Shown: piece by piece, positions 10,488-63,368 of the stretch
How the letters are laid out: each line of letters opens with the position of its first letter
Numbering within the stretch: the stretch's first letter is position 1
Assembly (NCBI GenBank): GCA_002762985.1
Contig: PCXZ01000030.1
Coordinates: 80,399-144,398 of the forward strand
Source: Candidatus Woesearchaeota archaeon CG10_big_fil_rev_8_21_14_0_10_44_13
Lineage (GTDB): Archaea > Nanobdellota > Nanobdellia > Woesearchaeales > UBA12501
DNA length: 64,000 nucleotides
Direction: 5' to 3'
Notes under the pieces: generated by a model
What the model saw: the letters and a program-made list of their open reading frames with translations, nothing else
What the model was told of the DNA's origin: nothing
Database searches by the model: none
Position numbers and translations under genes: made by a program

Positions 10488-11906
10488 TTATGCCTTCCTG
10501 CAATCAAATATATATGCACTATCTTCCCTGAAGACCTCCCTGCAATATGCGCTTAATCTCTCTGCTGCTTCTTCATTAGGCATCCTGTATATCTCAGGTG
10601 TCTTTGATGTAAGGATCACATAATCTATGCCTAACCTGCCTATATTCCCACTGAGATCGCCGAATATGTCTGCATTGTACTGCATATCAGCCCTGTAATT
10701 GAAAGGCCCCCAGTTGAATGTGGCTACTTTGCCCGGATGCGAGATGATCCACTGGCTCGCATGATACTCGCTGTCTGTCGCTGTCTCCAGCCTGACAAAA
10801 TAGTATGCCGAGAATAAGCCCGCGATGACAGAGCACGCGACCAAGACGGCAGTCATATGGAGGTAGTATCTTTTCAGCCTTATCCTCTCGACAAAATGCC
10901 CCCAGCCGTCAGCTCCGAGTATGGCCAATGGGAACAGCAGGAATGCAAGGTTTCTTGTAGGAGGGAAAGGGGCTATGAACTGGAAGAATGATACAAACAC
11001 AAGGAAAATGACAAATGGATAAATTGTTTTTTTATGCTGCGTTTTCATCCTTGAGAAGAAAGCCAGGAACAATGCGGGCAACCCAACCCTTATTGGTATC
11101 AGATACCAGTAGGAATCTACAACGATCTTTTTTGCTATCCCGAGGCCCGCATTAGGGGGAGGGAATGAGATGTACTTGATCAGCATTGGCATGCTGAGTA
11201 TTGCTGTAGAGGCGGCAAGAAGCGCGATATGCTTTATGAAATCAGACCTTTTCCTTATCAAGACGACAATAAGTAATATGAAGTATGTGAAGCCAAGGTA
11301 AGTGGTATAGCTGTAGAAAAGCAGGACTGAGAATATCAGGGCCAGAATGAAATTCACAGCATAATTCCTGTTCTTCGTGTCTTCGAGCATGCTCAAAAGA
11401 TAGTTGAAGCAGAGCAACGAGAGGATTATGCCTAATATCTGCGGCTGGGCATTGGTCGAGCCCAGGACCATGTATTCAGGGGAAAAGACAGCAAGCGCTG
11501 TAGCAAGCAGGGCCTTCTTTTCATCTAGGAATCTCCTTGCCAGAGGATAGAATGCGAAAACGGCCATTGCCGCAAGCAATGAAGGGAAAAACCTGGCAAA
11601 AAAATCCATCCCGAAATAACTTCCGAACCCCAGGATCACATCGAACAGCGGCGGGTAATTGGGGTAGCTTATGCAGTCCTCAACGCTGATGCTATAGAAT
11701 GCCTTTAAGGGAAACCCCCCGTTCCTGAGGTAACATTCAGCCTTCTGTATGTGCTGCCATGCATCATCGCTTGTAGGGTAAGATGTGTACAAGAAAGGGA
11801 GAAGCATGGCTGCAAATGCCATTAAAAACAGCAGCAGAAGCGTTAAACGGCTTTTGTCTTTAACCATATCTTGGACTATTCCCCTTAAGTTTTTAAATAT
11901 TCCCAT
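10488..11906 (-). CDS. GT-C fold membrane glycosyltransferase, paralog 3
   Basis: 472 aa with ~10 TM helices and a C-terminal soluble domain. Same architecture as the paralogs at 1814-3544, 7875-9431 and 16209-18026. Confidence 0.45.
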   Translation of the reverse strand: MGIFKNLRGIVQDMVKDKSRLTLLLLFLMAFAAMLLPFLYTSYPTSDDAWQHIQKAECYLRNGGFPLKAFYSISVEDCISYPNYPPLFDVILGFGSYFGMDFFARFFPSLLAAMAVFAFYPLARRFLDEKKALLATALAVFSPEYMVLGSTNAQPQILGIILSLLCFNYLLSMLEDTKNRNYAVNFILALIFSVLLFYSYTTYLGFTYFILLIVVLIRKRSDFIKHIALLAASTAILSMPMLIKYISFPPPNAGLGIAKKIVVDSYWYLIPIRVGLPALFLAFFSRMKTQHKKTIYPFVIFLVFVSFFQFIAPFPPTRNLAFLLFPLAILGADGWGHFVERIRLKRYYLHMTAVLVACSVIAGLFSAYYFVRLETATDSEYHASQWIISHPGKVATFNWGPFNYRADMQYNADIFGDLSGNIGRLGIDYVILTSKTPEIYRMPNEEAAERLSAYCREVFREDSAYIFDCRKA

Positions 11907-11912
11907 TAAATC

Positions 11913-12075
11913 GGCTCTGTCCTAAATGAAGGTTAGCATCAATTTGTGAGGCTTCTTCTATATAACAATAAAGACGAGAAGGGGGTTGTCCCTTACGGGG
12001 AATCTCGGCCTTAGGTTAAATAAGCAGAAGCCGAACCGATGCTAACCCGAGTGAAGCGAGATTTAGGACAGAGCC
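11913..12075. mobile_element. MITE-like non-autonomous element (163 bp) with imperfect ~28-bp terminal inverted repeats and a 9-bp target-site duplication
   Basis: The left repeat (GGCTCTGTCCTAAAT-gaa-GGTTAGCATC at 11913-11940) and the right repeat (GATGCTAACC-...-ATTTAGGACAGAGCC at 12038-12075) carry exact reverse-complement blocks of 15 and 10 bp. They are flanked immediately by the direct repeat CATTAAATC at 11904-11912 and 12076-12084. Confidence 0.55.
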
Positions 12076-12202
12076 CATTAAATCAGGATTCTTGCGCACG
12101 CACAGCGACGGGGTGGGACTACATTAATCCGTAAGGATTTATCGATGTTGCTTGAATTAGTCGGAGGGCTAAAGCTTTAGCTTTATGCCCCCCTTAGTGT
12201 TG

Positions 12203-12290
12203 CGCTCGACTTGAAAATCGCGGTTGCGGATTTTCAAGATCTGAAAATGGCTTTGCCATTTTCAGCAGATGCGCGTAACCATCTCGAGCG
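12203..12290. repeat. Three-way hairpin cluster: two near-identical 10-12 bp hairpins enclosed by a 7-bp outer stem
   Basis: Hairpin 1 is cTTGAAAATCGC-ggtt-GCgGATTTTCAAg (12210-12238). Hairpin 2 is CTGAAAATGG-ctttg-CCATTTTCAG (12241-12265). The outer stem is CGCTCGA / TCGAGCG (12203-12209 / 12284-12290). An additional hairpin lies at 12166-12190. Confidence 0.5.
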
Positions 12291-12352
12291 GGACGGTTTT
12301 TGAGGAAAAAATGCCTTTTAAGTTACAACAATACACGAATTTCCCATCGCAA

Positions 12353-12365
12353 CCTTTAAATAACC
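12353..12365 (+). promoter_or_regulatory. TATA-like box (CCTTTAAATAACC) upstream of asnB
   Basis: A/T box 20-32 nt upstream of the ATG at 12385. The same spacing recurs at other genes (3574-3583, 32072-32086, 33251-33263), consistent with archaeal leaderless promoters. Confidence 0.4.
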
Positions 12366-12384: not shown

Positions 12385-14319
12385 ATGTGCGGGATAAACG
12401 GCATAGCTGGGTTCGAGGACAAGGAACTCATAAAGAGGATGAATGATGCAGTCGCCCACAGGGGCCCTGATGATTCAGGATTCTTCTCTGACAGGAATGT
12501 TTGCCTCGGCCACAGGAGATTGAGCATAATCGACCTGAGCAAGAGGGGCCACCAGCCCATGTGCAACGAGAACAAGGATATCTGGATAGTTTTCAATGGC
12601 GAGATATACAACTTCAGGGAGCTGAAGAAAGAGCTTGATGAGAAAGGCCATAGGTTCAGCAGCGATTCTGATACAGAGGCGATAATCCACCTTTATGAGG
12701 AGGAAGGGATTGGCTGCGTCAGGAGGCTCAAGGGCATCTTTGCGTTCGCGATATATGATTCGAAAAAGAAGATCGTCTTCATCGCCCGGGACCAGCTTGG
12801 GGTGAAGCCATTGCATTACGCTTTTGTGGATAATGGCAGCAACATGCTCTTCGCGTCAGAGATAAAATCGATCCTCCAATGCGAAAATGTAAGGAGGGAA
12901 GTGAACCTCAATGGCCTCCATAAATTCATGAACTTCAATTACATATTCGGCGGCGAGACATTGTTCAGGGGCATCTTCAAGCTCAACCCTGGCCATTGCT
13001 TGGTCTATGATATAAAGACGAAAAAGCACAGGATAGGTAAGTACTGGGAATTGAAGATAGAGAAGACAGACCACCCCGAGGATTATTATGTCGGAAGGAT
13101 AAGGGAAGGGCTTTCAGAATCGATAAGGATGCAGCTTGTCTCTGATGTGCCTTTAGGGGTTTTCCTCTCAGGAGGCATTGATTCAAGCTCTATCGTGGCA
13201 TTGATGTCGGAATTCGATGACATTGAAAAGCCGATAAAGACCTATGCAGTAGGGTTCAATGAGCCATGGGATGAACTGCATGATGCAAAAAGGGTCAGCG
13301 ATAAGTTCGGCACTGACCACCATGAGATCTATGTCGAAAGCGATGTCCTTAAGCATTACCCTGAGTTCATATGGCATATGGACACGCCAAAGACCAACAT
13401 AAGCCCGCAATTCTACATCTCGAAGCTTGCAAAAAGGTCTGTGACTGTCGCATTGACGGGCCTCGGAGGAGATGAGCTTTTTGCCGGCTATAGGAGGCAT
13501 AAGTATTATTACCATCAGGAAAAAATAAGCGCGATGATACCTGAATCCCTCGGGAAGCCTTTCTTCAGCGCGATGAGCAGGATAGCATTGTCAAACTACC
13601 TCAAAAGAGGGATGATATACCTTGCAAACATACATGATGAAGAGAAGACCTACACTATCGCTGCGCCGTTGCTTGTCTATGAGGATGAGAGGGACGACCT
13701 TTATGGAGAGGGGATGAAGAAGGCAGGATTGCAGGATTTCAAGGACATGCTCAAGCCTTATCTCTCACAGAAGACCAAGAATGATGATGCTGATTATTAC
13801 AACCAGACGCTGAAGATGGAGATAAAGACATACCTCAATGATGACCTCCTCGAGAGGATGGACAGGATGTCCATGGCCCATGCTGTTGAAGCTAGGGTCC
13901 CGTTCCTCGACCATGATTTTGTAGAGTTCGCATTCTCGATACCAAACAAGTACAGGAGGTTCAAGCTAGGCACAACATCAGGCAAGGACCTTCTGTGCAA
14001 GGCCATGAAGGGCAAGGTCCCTGATTTTGTCTTCAAGAAGAAGAAGGTCGGATTCAACATGAGCCCTTATTACTGGTTCAAGGCCCACCTGAGGGAGCAC
14101 ATAAAGAACATACTGACGAAAGAGGCAGTGTACAGGAGGGGGCTTTTCAGCTACAAGTATGTGGAGAGATTCCTGAACAAGAAGCCGTCTGAAAACCTCT
14201 ATTACCAGTACCAGACATTGTGGAACATGATGGCATTCGAGATATGGCACCAGATGTATATCGATGCTGACAGGAAGCGGATCATGAAGCCGAAGATGGG
14301 GATAGAGGATTATTCATGA
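12385..14319 (+). CDS. asnB: Asparagine synthetase (glutamine-hydrolysing) family amidotransferase
   Basis: N-terminal 'MCGI' catalytic Cys of class II glutamine amidotransferases and the 'SGGIDSS' PP-loop. The length of 644 aa fits the family. Confidence 0.85.
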   Translation: MCGINGIAGFEDKELIKRMNDAVAHRGPDDSGFFSDRNVCLGHRRLSIIDLSKRGHQPMCNENKDIWIVFNGEIYNFRELKKELDEKGHRFSSDSDTEAIIHLYEEEGIGCVRRLKGIFAFAIYDSKKKIVFIARDQLGVKPLHYAFVDNGSNMLFASEIKSILQCENVRREVNLNGLHKFMNFNYIFGGETLFRGIFKLNPGHCLVYDIKTKKHRIGKYWELKIEKTDHPEDYYVGRIREGLSESIRMQLVSDVPLGVFLSGGIDSSSIVALMSEFDDIEKPIKTYAVGFNEPWDELHDAKRVSDKFGTDHHEIYVESDVLKHYPEFIWHMDTPKTNISPQFYISKLAKRSVTVALTGLGGDELFAGYRRHKYYYHQEKISAMIPESLGKPFFSAMSRIALSNYLKRGMIYLANIHDEEKTYTIAAPLLVYEDERDDLYGEGMKKAGLQDFKDMLKPYLSQKTKNDDADYYNQTLKMEIKTYLNDDLLERMDRMSMAHAVEARVPFLDHDFVEFAFSIPNKYRRFKLGTTSGKDLLCKAMKGKVPDFVFKKKKVGFNMSPYYWFKAHLREHIKNILTKEAVYRRGLFSYKYVERFLNKKPSENLYYQYQTLWNMMAFEIWHQMYIDADRKRIMKPKMGIEDYS

Positions 14320-41479: not shown

Positions 41480-43047
41480 TTTGTCACCTTCTGTTTATCC
41501 TCGCCCGTGTATGGCGGCATCTTTTGATCATATTCACCAACACCATCAAATTTAGACAACAACCCCTGGATCGCCTGGATTATGTCATACATCTCTTTCC
41601 TTGTATTGAAGGATTCTGCAGTAATCACGAGAACGGGCTGGTTTGATGATGCCCTTATCAGGCCCCAGCTTCCATTATCAAAGATAAAACGGACACCATT
41701 GATCGTCACGAGCTCTTTTATCCTCTTTCCTGCAAAATTTTCACCATTTTTCTTCATTTTCCTGAATATTTCCGTGACTTCATCAACAATATCATATTTA
41801 ACAGAATCATTTGTCGTTGAAGGCTCCAATGTCGGGCTCTGATATGACTTTGGCTGCTGCGACATGATTTCTGACAATGGAGCGTCATTATTGGACAGTA
41901 TTGTGACAAACCACGCTGCTGACATGCATGCATCATCATATCCTTTGCCAAACTTCTGCCTTAGGAAGAAATGGCCGCTTTTCTCAAAACCTGCCAATGC
42001 GCCTATCTCGTCAGATTTGGCCTTTACATAGCTATGCCCTGTCTTGCTGAAAACAATCCTGCTCTTGTATTTATTCAGTATTGTGTCGATTGAATAAGCG
42101 CCGGTTGATTTGACATCAATAACTATGTTCTGCGCAGGAGGCATCTTCTGCACGAGGAACCTTGCGATGAAAAGCCCGACCCTGTCTGAAAATATGATAT
42201 TTCCCTTCTCGTCTACTACTCCCAAACGATCCCCGTCACCATCCACGACAACGCCTATGTCCGCCCCCTGTTTCCTTACGAATTCCCCTATGGCATTCAC
42301 AAACTTCATGTCCTCTGGATTGGGATTGAACTTGGGGAAATCCCAGTCCAGATCGCATTCGAATTCGATTACATCAAAACCGAGGCTTTTTATCAGTCTA
42401 GGGATGAAGTAACTTCCGCCCCCGTTAGCCCCTGAAACAATTACCTTGAGCTTTCTCTTTTTAAGATAAGGCTTCACTGTTTTTTGGATATCTGCCAGGT
42501 ATAACCTGTCCATGCCTTCAAATTTTGAATAATGGCCGGCGCCTTTCATGAATTTTTCAGAATAAACAAGCTTCTTGAATCCTACTATGTCCTCAGGCCC
42601 AAAAGTCTTTGAATATCCTTTTGCAAGTTTCAGGCCGGTCCATCCATTATCATTATGGCTTGCTGTGATCATTGCGGCACTTATCAGTTTCAGGTGATAC
42701 TGGCTGAAATAGAGCATCGGCGTTATTACAACACCAATATCGATTACATCCACTCCTGTTGAGAGCACGCCCGTGATAAAAGCATATGTGTTGCCTTTTG
42801 AATAAGACCTGTAATCGCAGCCTACGCTCATCTTTTTCTTCTTAAGGACCTTTCGTACATATGTGCCATAAGCCTGGCCAAGGACAAAAAAACCTTCTGT
42901 GTTTATTGCGGGCTCAATCTGCTTGCCGCCTTTAGTTAGGGGTATAAGTGGGTTCCTTAGGTCATACTCGCGGAAGAGGTTTTCCCCTATGACGGGGTTA
43001 TCTGCCCACCCATAGCTCTTGAATTTGGCTTTTTTAAGAATTCTCAT
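41476..43047 (-). CDS. α-D-phosphohexomutase (phosphoglucomutase/phosphomannomutase) family
   Basis: 'TASHNDNGW' phosphoserine loop and 'VVDGDGDRLGVVD' metal-binding loop. Confidence 0.75.
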   Translation of the reverse strand: MRILKKAKFKSYGWADNPVIGENLFREYDLRNPLIPLTKGGKQIEPAINTEGFFVLGQAYGTYVRKVLKKKKMSVGCDYRSYSKGNTYAFITGVLSTGVDVIDIGVVITPMLYFSQYHLKLISAAMITASHNDNGWTGLKLAKGYSKTFGPEDIVGFKKLVYSEKFMKGAGHYSKFEGMDRLYLADIQKTVKPYLKKRKLKVIVSGANGGGSYFIPRLIKSLGFDVIEFECDLDWDFPKFNPNPEDMKFVNAIGEFVRKQGADIGVVVDGDGDRLGVVDEKGNIIFSDRVGLFIARFLVQKMPPAQNIVIDVKSTGAYSIDTILNKYKSRIVFSKTGHSYVKAKSDEIGALAGFEKSGHFFLRQKFGKGYDDACMSAAWFVTILSNNDAPLSEIMSQQPKSYQSPTLEPSTTNDSVKYDIVDEVTEIFRKMKKNGENFAGKRIKELVTINGVRFIFDNGSWGLIRASSNQPVLVITAESFNTRKEMYDIIQAIQGLLSKFDGVGEYDQKMPPYTGEDKQKVTK

Positions 43048-43308
43048 TATGCATCCCTAAAAACTGCCTGTTTTTTGGTTACCATAGGCTAATATGTTAT
43101 GGGAGCCATATTTAAATTTTGTTAAAATTCCCCCTATTCTGCAAAAAAGGCCACATAAGCCAATATTGGCCAATAAGGGCTTTTTTTGGCAGATAAGCCC
43201 TTCTTATAACGAAAGCTTTAAATATTAATATATGTTTTTATACATTAATTTTGCAGGAGTAGCAAAATCATGTTAGAATAGCAGAATAAACCAAAAAGGT
43301 GATGTTTT

Positions 43309-43578
43309 ATGTTAAAAATGCAGAAGATATCTGAAACTTATGAACTAAAGGTCTTCACAGACACAGGCGAATATTTCGGCGATGTCGAGGAATCGATCCT
43401 GACAAAGACGAAGGTTTTCGGCTGGAGGGTCAAGGCAACAAAGAATTCTTATCTTGCGAAAGTCCTTGGATCCGCAAAAGGTGTCATTGTCCCGCATCAG
43501 CTTGTGAAGTCCATAGGTGATGTGATGATAATATCGAAAGCTGCGATCCCAAGCTATTCTGGCGAAGGCGAAGCTTAA
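43309..43578 (+). CDS. PRC-barrel domain small protein
   Basis: 89-aa archaeal-type PRC β-barrel ('VFGWRVKAT...GVIVPHQLVKSIGDVMI'). Confidence 0.55.
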   Translation: MLKMQKISETYELKVFTDTGEYFGDVEESILTKTKVFGWRVKATKNSYLAKVLGSAKGVIVPHQLVKSIGDVMIISKAAIPSYSGEGEA

Positions 43579-43681
43579 ATTTTTTTATTAATCTTATTAA
43601 TCTATAATTGATATATGATCTATCTTCATCTGTTTAGATAATTCATATCCAGATATCTCTTCAGATTTATCCTTAATTATT

Positions 43682-45073
43682 TCAGAAAACCATCTCAAAC
43701 TGCCTGCTTTTCTCTGCATCGCGTTTTGCTTCTGTTATGAGTCTCCTGTAGACGGCCTTCATCTTCCCCGACATATCCAGTGTCTCAGGTATGAAAACAG
43801 TCTGCATGCATCTCCTTCTTGTGCAGTCATCTATGACATTCTCCCGGCAGTTGGAATTATCTATATTTCCTTCCCTGACGGACATGTTCAGGAAGGGATT
43901 GTGGTCATAAGGCTCTGGCGTGCTGTGGAAATTGACATCCCCCTGCAGGGTCTTTTTTATCACAATGGGCGCATGCTCAAATGAGCAGGCCAATTCTATT
44001 GATTCGCTGCCTTTCTCATACCTTTCTGCCACCATCTCGTAAGGGCTGTCCTTGAAAACAATCGTGTAGTAGGGCATCTTGGTATAGCCCATCTCAGTTA
44101 TCTTTTCCCTTATCTTCCTCACCCACCTGTTCTCGTTCATCTGGTATGAGCTGCTCCTTCCGAAATCTTTTGTCTTCTGCCTCATGACTGCAAATCTTGC
44201 CAATCCTACATCTCCTGTCCTGTTCAGCGCTGCGCTGTAATGCTCGAATATTTCTGTCAGTCTCCTGTTTATGCTGTAAAGCGTTTCGCCTTTGACATAA
44301 TGCGCTATCAGGACATCGACTTCAAGGCTTGAGAGGAAAGGATTGCTGACAAAATCAAATGCGAGAGTAGGGTTTATCCTCCTTGTGTTCCTCTTCCCAT
44401 AATCGATCGAGAAATCCCTACCTAACCTGAGCTGCATGAATTGTGCTGTCTCAAGGGCAGCTGGATGGGAACCCATCACTCTTAGGTTCTTCTGGCTTTC
44501 AAAATCGCCATCAGGAGCAGAGCTGTATATGTCTTCATACTGTATGAGCCCGGAATCAGTGACAAATGGGTTGTTTATGTGGACGCTGTTGAATCCCTTG
44601 CTCTTTGATTTTATCATTCCTTCGAGGGACCTGCCGTAGATCCTTGGGTTTTCTATTGCGCTCATGCCTCCCTCGACCCAGAGATTCTTTGATCCCTCTT
44701 TCTTCTGTATGCGATCCACAAGTATCCTTTCAAGGTCTTCGATAGGGCATTGCAGCAATCCCTCTTTGCCATTGATCGGGAACTTGGGGCTGTAAGATAG
44801 GGTGCCTTCCTGCATCTTCTGCGTCTCATCCTTTTTGAATGCCTGCCATCTCTCAAGCCATTTTATAAGCTGGGGCTGGGTCGTTATTATGGTGTGGCCG
44901 ATTATATACCTTGCAGGATCACAGAATAAGGTGTTTGACCCCGATCTTATGGCTACCCCGTAATTCCTGGGGAGGATTATGTTCGTTTCTGGGATGTTAG
45001 TTTCAAGAATATCCGCCCCGGAGTCATTTTCCTGCCCTGTTCCCTTGCCTGTATGCCCTGTATCCTGCGCCAT
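43682..45073 (-). CDS. Hypothetical protein (463 aa) with low-complexity N-terminus and C-terminal 4-Cys cluster
   Basis: No recognisable family. The C-terminus has C...C-x7-C-x4-C, and the gene is flanked by AT-rich intergenic DNA on both sides. Confidence 0.3.
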   Translation of the reverse strand: MAQDTGHTGKGTGQENDSGADILETNIPETNIILPRNYGVAIRSGSNTLFCDPARYIIGHTIITTQPQLIKWLERWQAFKKDETQKMQEGTLSYSPKFPINGKEGLLQCPIEDLERILVDRIQKKEGSKNLWVEGGMSAIENPRIYGRSLEGMIKSKSKGFNSVHINNPFVTDSGLIQYEDIYSSAPDGDFESQKNLRVMGSHPAALETAQFMQLRLGRDFSIDYGKRNTRRINPTLAFDFVSNPFLSSLEVDVLIAHYVKGETLYSINRRLTEIFEHYSAALNRTGDVGLARFAVMRQKTKDFGRSSSYQMNENRWVRKIREKITEMGYTKMPYYTIVFKDSPYEMVAERYEKGSESIELACSFEHAPIVIKKTLQGDVNFHSTPEPYDHNPFLNMSVREGNIDNSNCRENVIDDCTRRRCMQTVFIPETLDMSGKMKAVYRRLITEAKRDAEKSRQFEMVF

Positions 45074-62772: not shown

Positions 62773-63147
62773 TCATTTCAAGGCCACGCACTTGTCCCCT
62801 CTGTAAAGGCACCCCGTCACACCATATTCAGCCCTGCAGTTCATACCGCAAGTCACTTTCCTTGCTGTCAAAGGGACATTCTTTACCTGATAGCAATTGC
62901 AGTCGCAGGGGCTTAGGAAGCAGTTTGGATCGCCGGAAGGTGTTATCTCTTTGGATTTCAGATCATCCACATTGACATTCTCCAATGGCTGTGTCTGGGG
63001 CTTGTATTCCTCCTGGGCCTGTGTTGAAGGGTCTGCTGTTGTCTTGATCTCCTGTTTTCCGGAGCAGCCTGCTAAAGAGAACGCGATAAGGCATATCAGG
63101 CTTAATGCCATTGCCATTAAGATTGTTCTTTTTTTCATTTTTTCCAT
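62773..63147 (-). CDS. Secreted lipoprotein with Cys-rich C-terminal domain
   Basis: Signal peptide plus a lipobox ('LAGC'). The mature part contains 8 Cys. Confidence 0.5.
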   Translation of the reverse strand: MEKMKKRTILMAMALSLICLIAFSLAGCSGKQEIKTTADPSTQAQEEYKPQTQPLENVNVDDLKSKEITPSGDPNCFLSPCDCNCYQVKNVPLTARKVTCGMNCRAEYGVTGCLYRGDKCVALK

Positions 63148-63182
63148 ATAAGCCTCAAAACCATGTCTGTTTAAATTTTTTG

Positions 63183-63368
63183 CTATTTTTTATGTTTTTC
63201 TTTGTTTGCCATGCTCTTCCTTAATCTCGGCAGTACAAAATAGGCCAAAATCGCAGCGATTACTATCACGCTCCAGAAAAAGGCCTCGTTTACAAGTTTC
63301 AGTGCAAAAAGAACAAGATTAGCTATAAGGAGAGCTACAAGCAGGATGGCAATTGCCTTCAGGTTCAT
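63183..63368 (-). CDS. Small two-helix membrane protein
   Basis: 61 aa, translationally coupled (ATGA) to the upstream zinc-ribbon ORF. Confidence 0.35.
   Translation of the reverse strand: MNLKAIAILLVALLIANLVLFALKLVNEAFFWSVIVIAAILAYFVLPRLRKSMANKEKHKK

Follow-up and report, generated by a model that had tools for sequence, protein, structure and literature searches.

A gene-free DNA element that lies between two divergent genes of a woesearchaeal genome is very probably a miniature inverted-repeat transposable element (MITE) of DPANN archaea (Woesearchaeota/Nanoarchaeota type) that inserts with a 9-bp stagger just upstream of a promoter's transcription factor B (TFB) recognition element (BRE). 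We analyzed it within 64,000 nt of DNA, hereafter the window, from Candidatus Woesearchaeota archaeon CG10_big_fil_rev_8_21_14_0_10_44_13 (GCA_002762985.1, contig PCXZ01000030.1, positions 80,399-144,398 of the forward strand). We use F1 for the family of the window MITE and labels such as L003 and L024 for loci outside the window. A previous, sequence-only reading had called the element a MITE. In line with that proposal, the same ends occur at many unrelated loci, and 13 of 19 copies carry a duplication of their own that matches at nine or eight of nine positions.

The element spans 163 bp (11913-12075, + strand, written with its short-spacer end on the left) and is built from two nested sets of inverted sequences. 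It starts with the 15-bp terminal inverted repeat GGCTCTGTCCTAAAT (11913-11927), which is nearly invariant across copies and is presumably the end that the transposase recognizes and cleaves, and it closes with the exact reverse complement, ATTTAGGACAGAGCC (12061-12075). Inside each repeat lies a 10-bp inner box, the nearly invariant GGTTAGCATC on the left (11931-11940) and its exact reverse complement GATGCTAACC on the right (12038-12047). The left box follows its repeat after 3 nt, a spacing kept in the other copies save for two with 2 nt, and the right box is separated from its repeat by the 13-nt spacer CGAGTGAAGCGAG (12048-12060), which forms a small hairpin. This right-hand spacer measures 13-16 nt in nearly all copies and 25 nt in one, again with a small hairpin (CGAGYGAAGCGAG). 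The two ends are therefore non-equivalent, the right one being longer by about one helical turn (13 vs 3 nt). Two perfectly matching 9-bp copies of CATTAAATC abut the element on either side (11904-11912 and 12076-12084); because the right terminal repeat ends in CC, the direct repeat actually extends to 11 nt (CCCATTAAATC). Sequence inspection, repeat search and position check all agree with the earlier description of 15-bp and 10-bp inverted blocks framed by a perfect 9-bp duplication. The element contains no open reading frame of at least 60 amino acids. Among the six inverted-repeat pairs that the window holds at seed 11, only the F1 pair has a flanking direct repeat, and neither a pattern search nor BLAST revealed a second F1 copy within the 64 kb.

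Outside the window, the family is widespread. With the terminal repeat plus the inner box as search pattern, we obtained matches at 12 loci in species-representative genomes and at 8 in JGI metagenomes, from which we compiled 19 copies (the window copy and 18 further loci); two more loci hold partial copies. The viral (IMG/VR), plasmid and phage collections contained none. The copies reside in metagenome-assembled genomes (MAGs) of Nanoarchaeota and Woesearchaeota, in MAGs labeled Methanosarcinales and in metagenomes, and five of the contigs belong to a single Woesearchaeota MAG. Copies range from 163 to 276 bp, with nearly invariant ends and an internal identity of 70-93%. A direct repeat of nine matching positions out of nine flanks eight of them (the window copy, L005, L006, L011, L012, L014, L021 and L022), and eight of nine positions match in five others (L007, L009, L010, L018 and L020). 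All of these duplications differ in sequence and all are 9 bp long. Because the repeat differs from copy to copy, it is a true target-site duplication.

The flanks likewise differ at every copy, and the MITE is the only DNA that the loci have in common. These data bear on an alternative that the sequence-only reading had itself raised, in which the element is a conserved, immobile regulatory or RNA element of the glycan locus. Its strong fold and conserved internal structure would fit such a role, and to that extent the scenario has something to it, as the internal helices do covary (see below). Yet the element is mobile: each copy sits among different flanks with its own duplication and beside unrelated genes, and two relatives lack it from the orthologous spacer. 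We regard this alternative as refuted, with next to no chance of being right.

The mobility appears to be recent. The proposed search for further copies yielded, besides the other loci, a copy in L019 whose backbone is 100% identical to that of the window copy and that nevertheless occupies another locus. A second, long-form copy (L029 12237-12459) lies in the same genome some 264 nt to the left of the window, so that the window's own genome holds at least two. In JGI sample 3300004210, contigs break inside both copies, and contig Ga0066639_10004121 begins and ends in MITE copies; the assembly breaks there because the MITE repeats. The identical backbone, the second copy in the same genome and the contig ends within copies together point to recent activity. 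At the other extreme, L003 419-620 is a degenerate variant that lacks a clear duplication; its terminal repeat (GCTCTGTAGAAAAT) and its inner box (GGCAGCGTC) have each undergone concerted changes in their two arms. Separately, we noticed that L007, L010 and L013 (records CAYWPA01 and CAYRMP01), which carry an unverified Methanosarcinales label and have 36-39% GC, hold the same MITE family as the DPANN MAGs; its presence there could reflect mis-binning or transfer between symbiont and host.

Read outward from their ends, the copies show a fixed relationship to promoters. Scoring as a strict TATA box any site that matches TTTAWAWA at 7 or more of 8 positions, we find one at an offset of exactly 15 nt from one end in 11 of the 19 copies, and looser matches at 14-16 nt in most of the others. 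Such sites occur by background at 0.8% of all positions (P = 7e-19) and at 2.4% of intergenic positions (P = 9e-14). In a histogram of offsets from 0 to 59, 11 flanks fall at 15 and between 0 and 3 at every other offset. Moving outward from one end, the order is almost always the 9-bp duplication, a 6-nt purine- or A-rich BRE-like stretch, the TATA box, about 22 nt and the ATG. Independently of any TATA scoring, 10 of the 19 copies have the start of a real open reading frame 44-46 nt past one end, and an eleventh has it at 42 nt. A scan blind to the family, in which exact 9-mer direct repeats were compared with TATA-like sites, also peaked at 15, with 44 matches as against 10-20 at most other offsets.

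The window copy follows this layout. Facing its left end is the GT-C promoter (11890-11903, - strand), composed of the BRE-like GGAATA (11898-11903) followed by the TATA box TTTAAAAA (11890-11897), which starts exactly 15 nt from the MITE; the ATG comes 22 nt after the TATA box and 45 nt beyond the MITE end. This TATA-22 nt-ATG leaderless arrangement is common to many other genes of the window. The gene behind the promoter (10488-11867, - strand) encodes a 459-amino-acid glycosyltransferase of the GT-C/PMT_2 family. Its start on record is 11867; an alternative ATG at 11906 falls inside the duplication and is not the true start. The sequence-only reading had placed the divergent GT-C and asnB genes as we find them. 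On the far side, asnB (12385-14319, + strand, ATG at 12385) is preceded by its own promoter (12348-12361, + strand), with the BRE-like CGCAAC (12348-12353) and then the TATA box CTTTAAAT (12354-12361).

The sequence constraint at the targets is one-sided. One flank reads R-N-A-A-N-N and then TTTAWAAA, whereas the far flank and the first seven bases of the duplication show no preference. In these genomes, promoters in general have the consensus C-R-A-A-A-N-N-TTTAWAWA, and the target logo is the same. The element may lie with one end or the other toward the promoter, in about 8 and 10 cases, and orientation is unbiased. The genes behind the targeted promoters are unrelated (GT-C, SET, DUF2061, ABC ATPase, glutaredoxin, GlmS, PPIase), and we looked for a function common to them and found none. 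We also considered tRNA genes as targets, but the window and the searched loci, which did not include L027, contain none.

Could survival rather than targeting produce this spacing? A transposase with a mere preference for AT-rich DNA might insert broadly, with only those insertions that land just upstream of a BRE persisting in compact genomes. The genomes are indeed compact, with very short intergenic spacers (those at the orthologous sites measure about 75 bp), intergenic DNA is where MITEs generally build up (PMC11602168), and enzymes of the IS903 type favor AT-rich flanks (PMC2577343). But none of the bases that separate the element from the TATA box is changed, owing to the duplication, so that offsets from about 7 nt upward should all be tolerated. 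Because those bases are restored, selection alone does not explain the spike at offset 15, which also holds on the intergenic-only background. Moreover, the two different elements of L009 used target positions only 1 nt apart. We therefore consider it improbable that selection accounts for the rule.

At least two other MITE-like elements appear to obey the same spacing as F1. One is a shorter relative without the outer repeat (L009 2654-2786, ends CATGTGCATAGCATC), which lies between the F1 copy of that locus and the TATA box; it has a duplication of its own, TTTAACCAG, offset by one base relative to the F1 duplication. The other, a 138-bp hairpin element with no evident similarity to F1 (L010 1519-1656), sits between two divergent genes with a perfect 9-bp duplication, TTTTGTGGG, and, as read by eye from the sequence, each of its ends lies 15 nt from a TATA box.

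Orthologous loci show what the spacer looks like in relatives that lack the element. We reached them through homologues of the GT-C protein, the closest named ones coming from Woesearchaeota and Nanoarchaeia MAGs. In L024 and L026 (69% and 66% GT-C amino-acid identity, respectively), the same divergent asnB/GT-C pair is separated by a spacer of 73-77 bp from which the element is absent. This spacer reads CAT-22 nt-TTTTTAAA-TATTTCC-(5-9 nt)-CTTTAAAT-22 nt-ATG and holds the same two TATA boxes as the window; the GT-C promoter thus exists in these loci without the MITE. The sequence-only reading had suggested looking for an empty site, and the two spacers favor a MITE. The L024 and L026 relatives are too diverged to show the exact site with a single CATTAAATC, and a search of metagenomes for that site (ATATTCCCATTAAATCAGGATTC) gave no match.

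In the window the same spacer measures 517 bp, and the MITE is only part of the growth. A further hairpin-rich block of about 260 bp, which we call block X (12085-12338 plus 11907-11912), is likewise absent from the L024 and L026 spacers. It is bounded by TATTCCCAT (11898-11906) and ATTTCCCAT (12339-12347), which match at 7 of 9 positions. The MITE sits 6 nt inside the block's left edge, with the TATA box of GT-C at 15 nt from it, and the asnB TATA box in turn starts 15 nt from the right edge of the block. Block X was probably inserted first, and the MITE landed in it afterwards. We keep this reading tentative because the block has no terminal repeats and no other copy. As a classical MITE block X was rejected: it has neither terminal inverted repeats nor a single long hairpin, and the locus sequences compared contain no other copy. 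On this account, an ancestral spacer of about 75 bp with two back-to-back promoters would have received the insert of about 260 bp first and the MITE, upstream of the GT-C promoter, second. The recent remodeling that had been proposed for this region is supported by the perfect duplication, by the fully identical backbone elsewhere and by the growth of the spacer from about 75 to 517 bp.

The element is also highly structured. The 183-nt region, duplications included, folds as one long interrupted hairpin, and both strands are far more stable than shuffled sequence (-66 kcal/mol, z -5.8, for the + strand; -73.9 kcal/mol, z -7.7, for the - strand; 0 of 200 shuffles as stable). Between the inner boxes, the left arm of helix 3, GGCTTCT (11950-11956, + strand), pairs with AGAAGCC (12026-12032, + strand) in the per-copy folds; in other copies different sequences occupy this site and are still complementary. 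Further in, the helix GACGAG/CTCGGC (11973-11978 and 12004-12009, + strand) encloses the conserved tip AGGGGG..CCCT-TAC-GGGG (11980-12000, + strand). One architecture is common to all folded copies.

We measured covariation across 15 copies, using as control the same helices with their partners slid. The outer helices are nearly fixed: of the 14 pairs of helix 1, formed by the terminal repeat, 9 are invariant and none changes on both sides, and in helix 2, formed by the inner box, 8 of 10 pairs are invariant. By contrast, copies differ at both partners in all 6 pairs of the GACGAG/CTCGGC helix and in 2 of the 4 in the tip hairpin. Altogether, 10 pairs in the inner helices (helices 3 and 4 and the tip hairpin) carry changes on both sides with pairing kept. 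Paired cells amount to 96.8%, as against 28-42% with slid partners, and the covariation score is 0.256, as against 0.02-0.05. The internal helices covary, and the fold is conserved.

Such conservation invites a different explanation, namely that the element acts as a folded single strand of RNA or DNA and moves by a route other than classical DDE cut-and-paste, or else that it carries a functional structured RNA from place to place. The covariation and the shared architecture speak for it, as do the long variants, in which helix 2 can still pair despite a 65-nt module within the right inner box, and the L003 variant with its concerted changes in both arms. Against it, a comparison with Rfam placed no family at gathering score in the window and returned only chance-level matches at E values up to 10. 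The strands do not differ in how well they fold: of 18 copies, 10 are more stable as the + strand, the difference averaging -2.3 +/- 6.2 kcal/mol with no consistent bias, so that no single transcribed strand is singled out. Orientation relative to neighboring genes is random, there is no conserved internal promoter, and templated repair may keep palindrome arms matched without selection on structure. Terminal inverted repeats with a constant 9-bp duplication are, moreover, the signature of staggered double-strand cuts. We judge this explanation unlikely, and a DNA transposon whose conserved hairpin probably matters for transposition remains the preferred reading.

The long variants L019 and L029 (276 bp) carry two modules of two hairpins each, one in the tip and one splitting the right inner box. 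The latter, of about 65 nt, separates GATG from CTAACC, and L015 has a different two-hairpin insert at almost the same place. The conserved property thus seems to be the ability of the arms to pair, which may reflect either a function of folded single-stranded DNA or RNA, or arm-to-arm templated repair. Small hairpin modules of this kind recur in the window's genome and its relatives as GATAATCCC..GGGATTATC, CTGAAAAT..ATTTTCAG and TTGTCAAG..CTTGACAA, with loops of the form CGAGC-N-GCGAG. We located them at L019 736-783 and 837-901, L029 12314-12360 and 12417-12459, L027 14464-14585 and window 12211-12265. They occur both free-standing and nested at two fixed positions inside the 276-bp variants, and they have the look of very small repeats of a REP-like family (REP, repetitive extragenic palindrome). 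Past the right end of the window, at about 14330-14440 of L027, a tRNA-like sequence (gtgcggggg...cccccgca) adjoins such modules.

Which enzyme moves F1? Because the duplication is constant at 9 bp and the ends are inverted, it would be a DDE transposase, and an active copy is expected elsewhere in the genome, as the sequence-only reading had also supposed. An IS5-family enzyme of the IS903 type, which would have DDE_Tnp_1 / PF13737 domains, is our leading guess, though one that we hold with less than even confidence. The IS903 end GGCTTTGTTGAATAAATC, taken from a plasmid record, aligns with the MITE end, and 64 of 5000 shuffles score as well (p ~0.013); in this weak match, GGCTCTGT--CCTAAAT of the MITE lies opposite GGCTTTGTTGAATAAAT. 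IS903 makes 9-bp duplications and prefers AT-rich flanks of the form WTTYA-N9-TRAAW (PMC2577343). F1 insertions do not follow this palindromic motif, as their other flank is patternless. The resemblance to IS903 may thus serve as a lead and not as evidence of membership. Searching with the IS903 transposase gave no phmmer match among all open reading frames of the collected loci, and a database homologue search returned bacterial proteins only, mostly enterobacterial.

Several observations weigh against an F1 MITE targeted to promoters by such an enzyme. First, the match of its terminal repeats to a full-length insertion sequence (IS), which had been put forward as a check, failed: none with F1 ends turned up in 185,579 representative genomes, the JGI metagenome set or the IMG/VR, plasmid and phage collections. 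Nor does a full-length IS lie near any copy, or a transposase reading frame beside the single-ended or near-repeat matches in L008, L020 and L021. IS elements are often lost from short-read MAGs, and because of this the missing partner is weak evidence. Second, the similarity to the IS903 end is weak, and the F1 target preference is one-sided and not palindromic. Third, the copies are not uniform: L003 and L015 lack a clear duplication, and it is decayed in L013, L019 and L004. L004 has no TATA box at 15, the second copy in the window's genome has one 26 nt from its visible end, and in L010 the distance between a related element and a TATA box is 11-13 nt. Fourth, the covarying internal helices and the hairpin module that splits the right inner box exceed what a plain cut-and-paste MITE needs. 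Finally, all sequences come from metagenome assemblies, and the Methanosarcinales label on three loci is unverified.

Weighing these points, we still favor a targeted MITE, and its geometry suggests how insertion might proceed. A transposase encoded elsewhere would recognize both ends of the gene-free element and insert it through cuts staggered by 9 bp, giving rise to the 9-bp duplication. Insertion is very probably not random: the staggered cut falls immediately upstream of the BRE, which puts the element's end 9 + 6 nt from the TATA box and hence about 45 nt ahead of a leaderless gene's start codon, with either end able to face the promoter. Targeting may read the BRE/TATA sequence itself or sense DNA that is bound and bent by the TATA-binding protein (TBP) and TFB. 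More tentatively, and with the odds somewhat against it, we entertain a fuller model. In it, a BRE/TATA site bound by TBP and TFB, or bent by TBP, would serve as the landmark for integration of a group of DPANN-archaeal MITEs, with the 9-bp cut at the upstream edge of the BRE, making them a prokaryotic DNA-transposon counterpart of the tethering of Ty3 by TFIIIB. The conserved fold and the hairpin modules would reflect recognition of the element as a structured single strand, and its inserted ends, coming to rest at activator sites, could act as portable upstream regulatory sites.

Other repeats in the window stand apart from F1. A perfect 13-bp inverted repeat, TATCCACAATGCG / CGCATTGTGGATA (926-938 and 1096-1108, with 157 nt between the arms), sits in a long spacer beside a TATA-like site and is unrelated to the family. 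We considered this repeat and a second one at 63118-63321 as F1 members and rejected both, as they do not resemble the family. An AT-rich palindrome, AAAAAAGGCC..CCAATATTGG..GGGCTTTTTT (43143-43186), lies within the spacer 43047-43682, and near it positions 43295-43594 are 77% identical to L014 6962-7266.

If the spacing rule holds, F1 would provide a natural and abundant read-out of promoter positions in uncultivated DPANN genomes. It would also offer a tractable case of a transposase choosing its target through core promoter sequence or through the TBP/TFB-DNA complex, and a mechanistic parallel to promoter-tethered integration in eukaryotes. In practice, F1 repeats explain why short-read assemblies break at such spacers. 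They also illustrate how promoter-proximal spacers can grow repeatedly in very compact genomes with both promoters kept, the promoters surviving since the bases upstream of them are restored by the duplication.

As a MITE, the element is of an ordinary kind. Like prokaryotic examples such as the Correia/NEMIS elements of Neisseria and the SM MITEs of Sulfolobus, it is small and gene-free, has terminal inverted repeats and a target duplication, occurs in many intergenic copies and folds into a long hairpin. F1 as a family seems not to have been described before: in the literature on archaeal MITEs and Woesearchaeota MITE families we found no description of F1 or its end sequence. One census lists a Woesearchaea genome with 105 MITEs per Mb (PMC11602168). 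The small hairpin modules of the long variants, block X and L027 resemble the dispersed extragenic palindromes of bacteria, that is, REP repeats and bacterial interspersed mosaic elements. They differ from these in that their sequences are unrelated, no RAYT-type enzyme was seen and modules are also nested at fixed positions within the MITE. An element of the IS200/IS605 type associated with palindromes (palindrome-associated transposable element or REP) is ruled out for F1 by the terminal inverted repeats and the 9-bp duplication. The IS903 group of the IS5 family and its derived MITEs share with F1 the 9-bp duplication and the preference for AT-rich flanks, and the weak resemblance of their terminal repeat lies in a start of the form GGCT..TGT....TAAAT. 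Unlike IS903, F1 has archaeal and not enterobacterial hosts, the search for its transposase found none, each of its ends is made of two parts (repeat and inner box) with unequal spacers, and its one-sided preference reaches a full BRE and a TATA box that starts 6 nt beyond the duplication.

It is the precise placement upstream of promoters, with duplication, BRE and TATA box in the same order regardless of gene and orientation, that is not ordinary. Our literature search found no archaeal transposon at a fixed distance from BRE/TATA. Among eukaryotes, Ty3 integrates at the start sites of RNA polymerase III through TFIIIB, and TRE5-A inserts about 48 bp upstream of tRNA genes. As with F1, the distance from the insertion to a core promoter, one that TBP and a TFIIB-family factor bind, is fixed there, the gene is left intact and its function is irrelevant. 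Ty3 and TRE5-A are retrotransposons whose tethering to factors is experimentally shown, whereas F1 is an archaeal DNA transposon for which geometry alone suggests a role of TBP and TFB. By analogy, then, the behavior of F1 seems most like the promoter-tethered integration of these eukaryotic retrotransposons.

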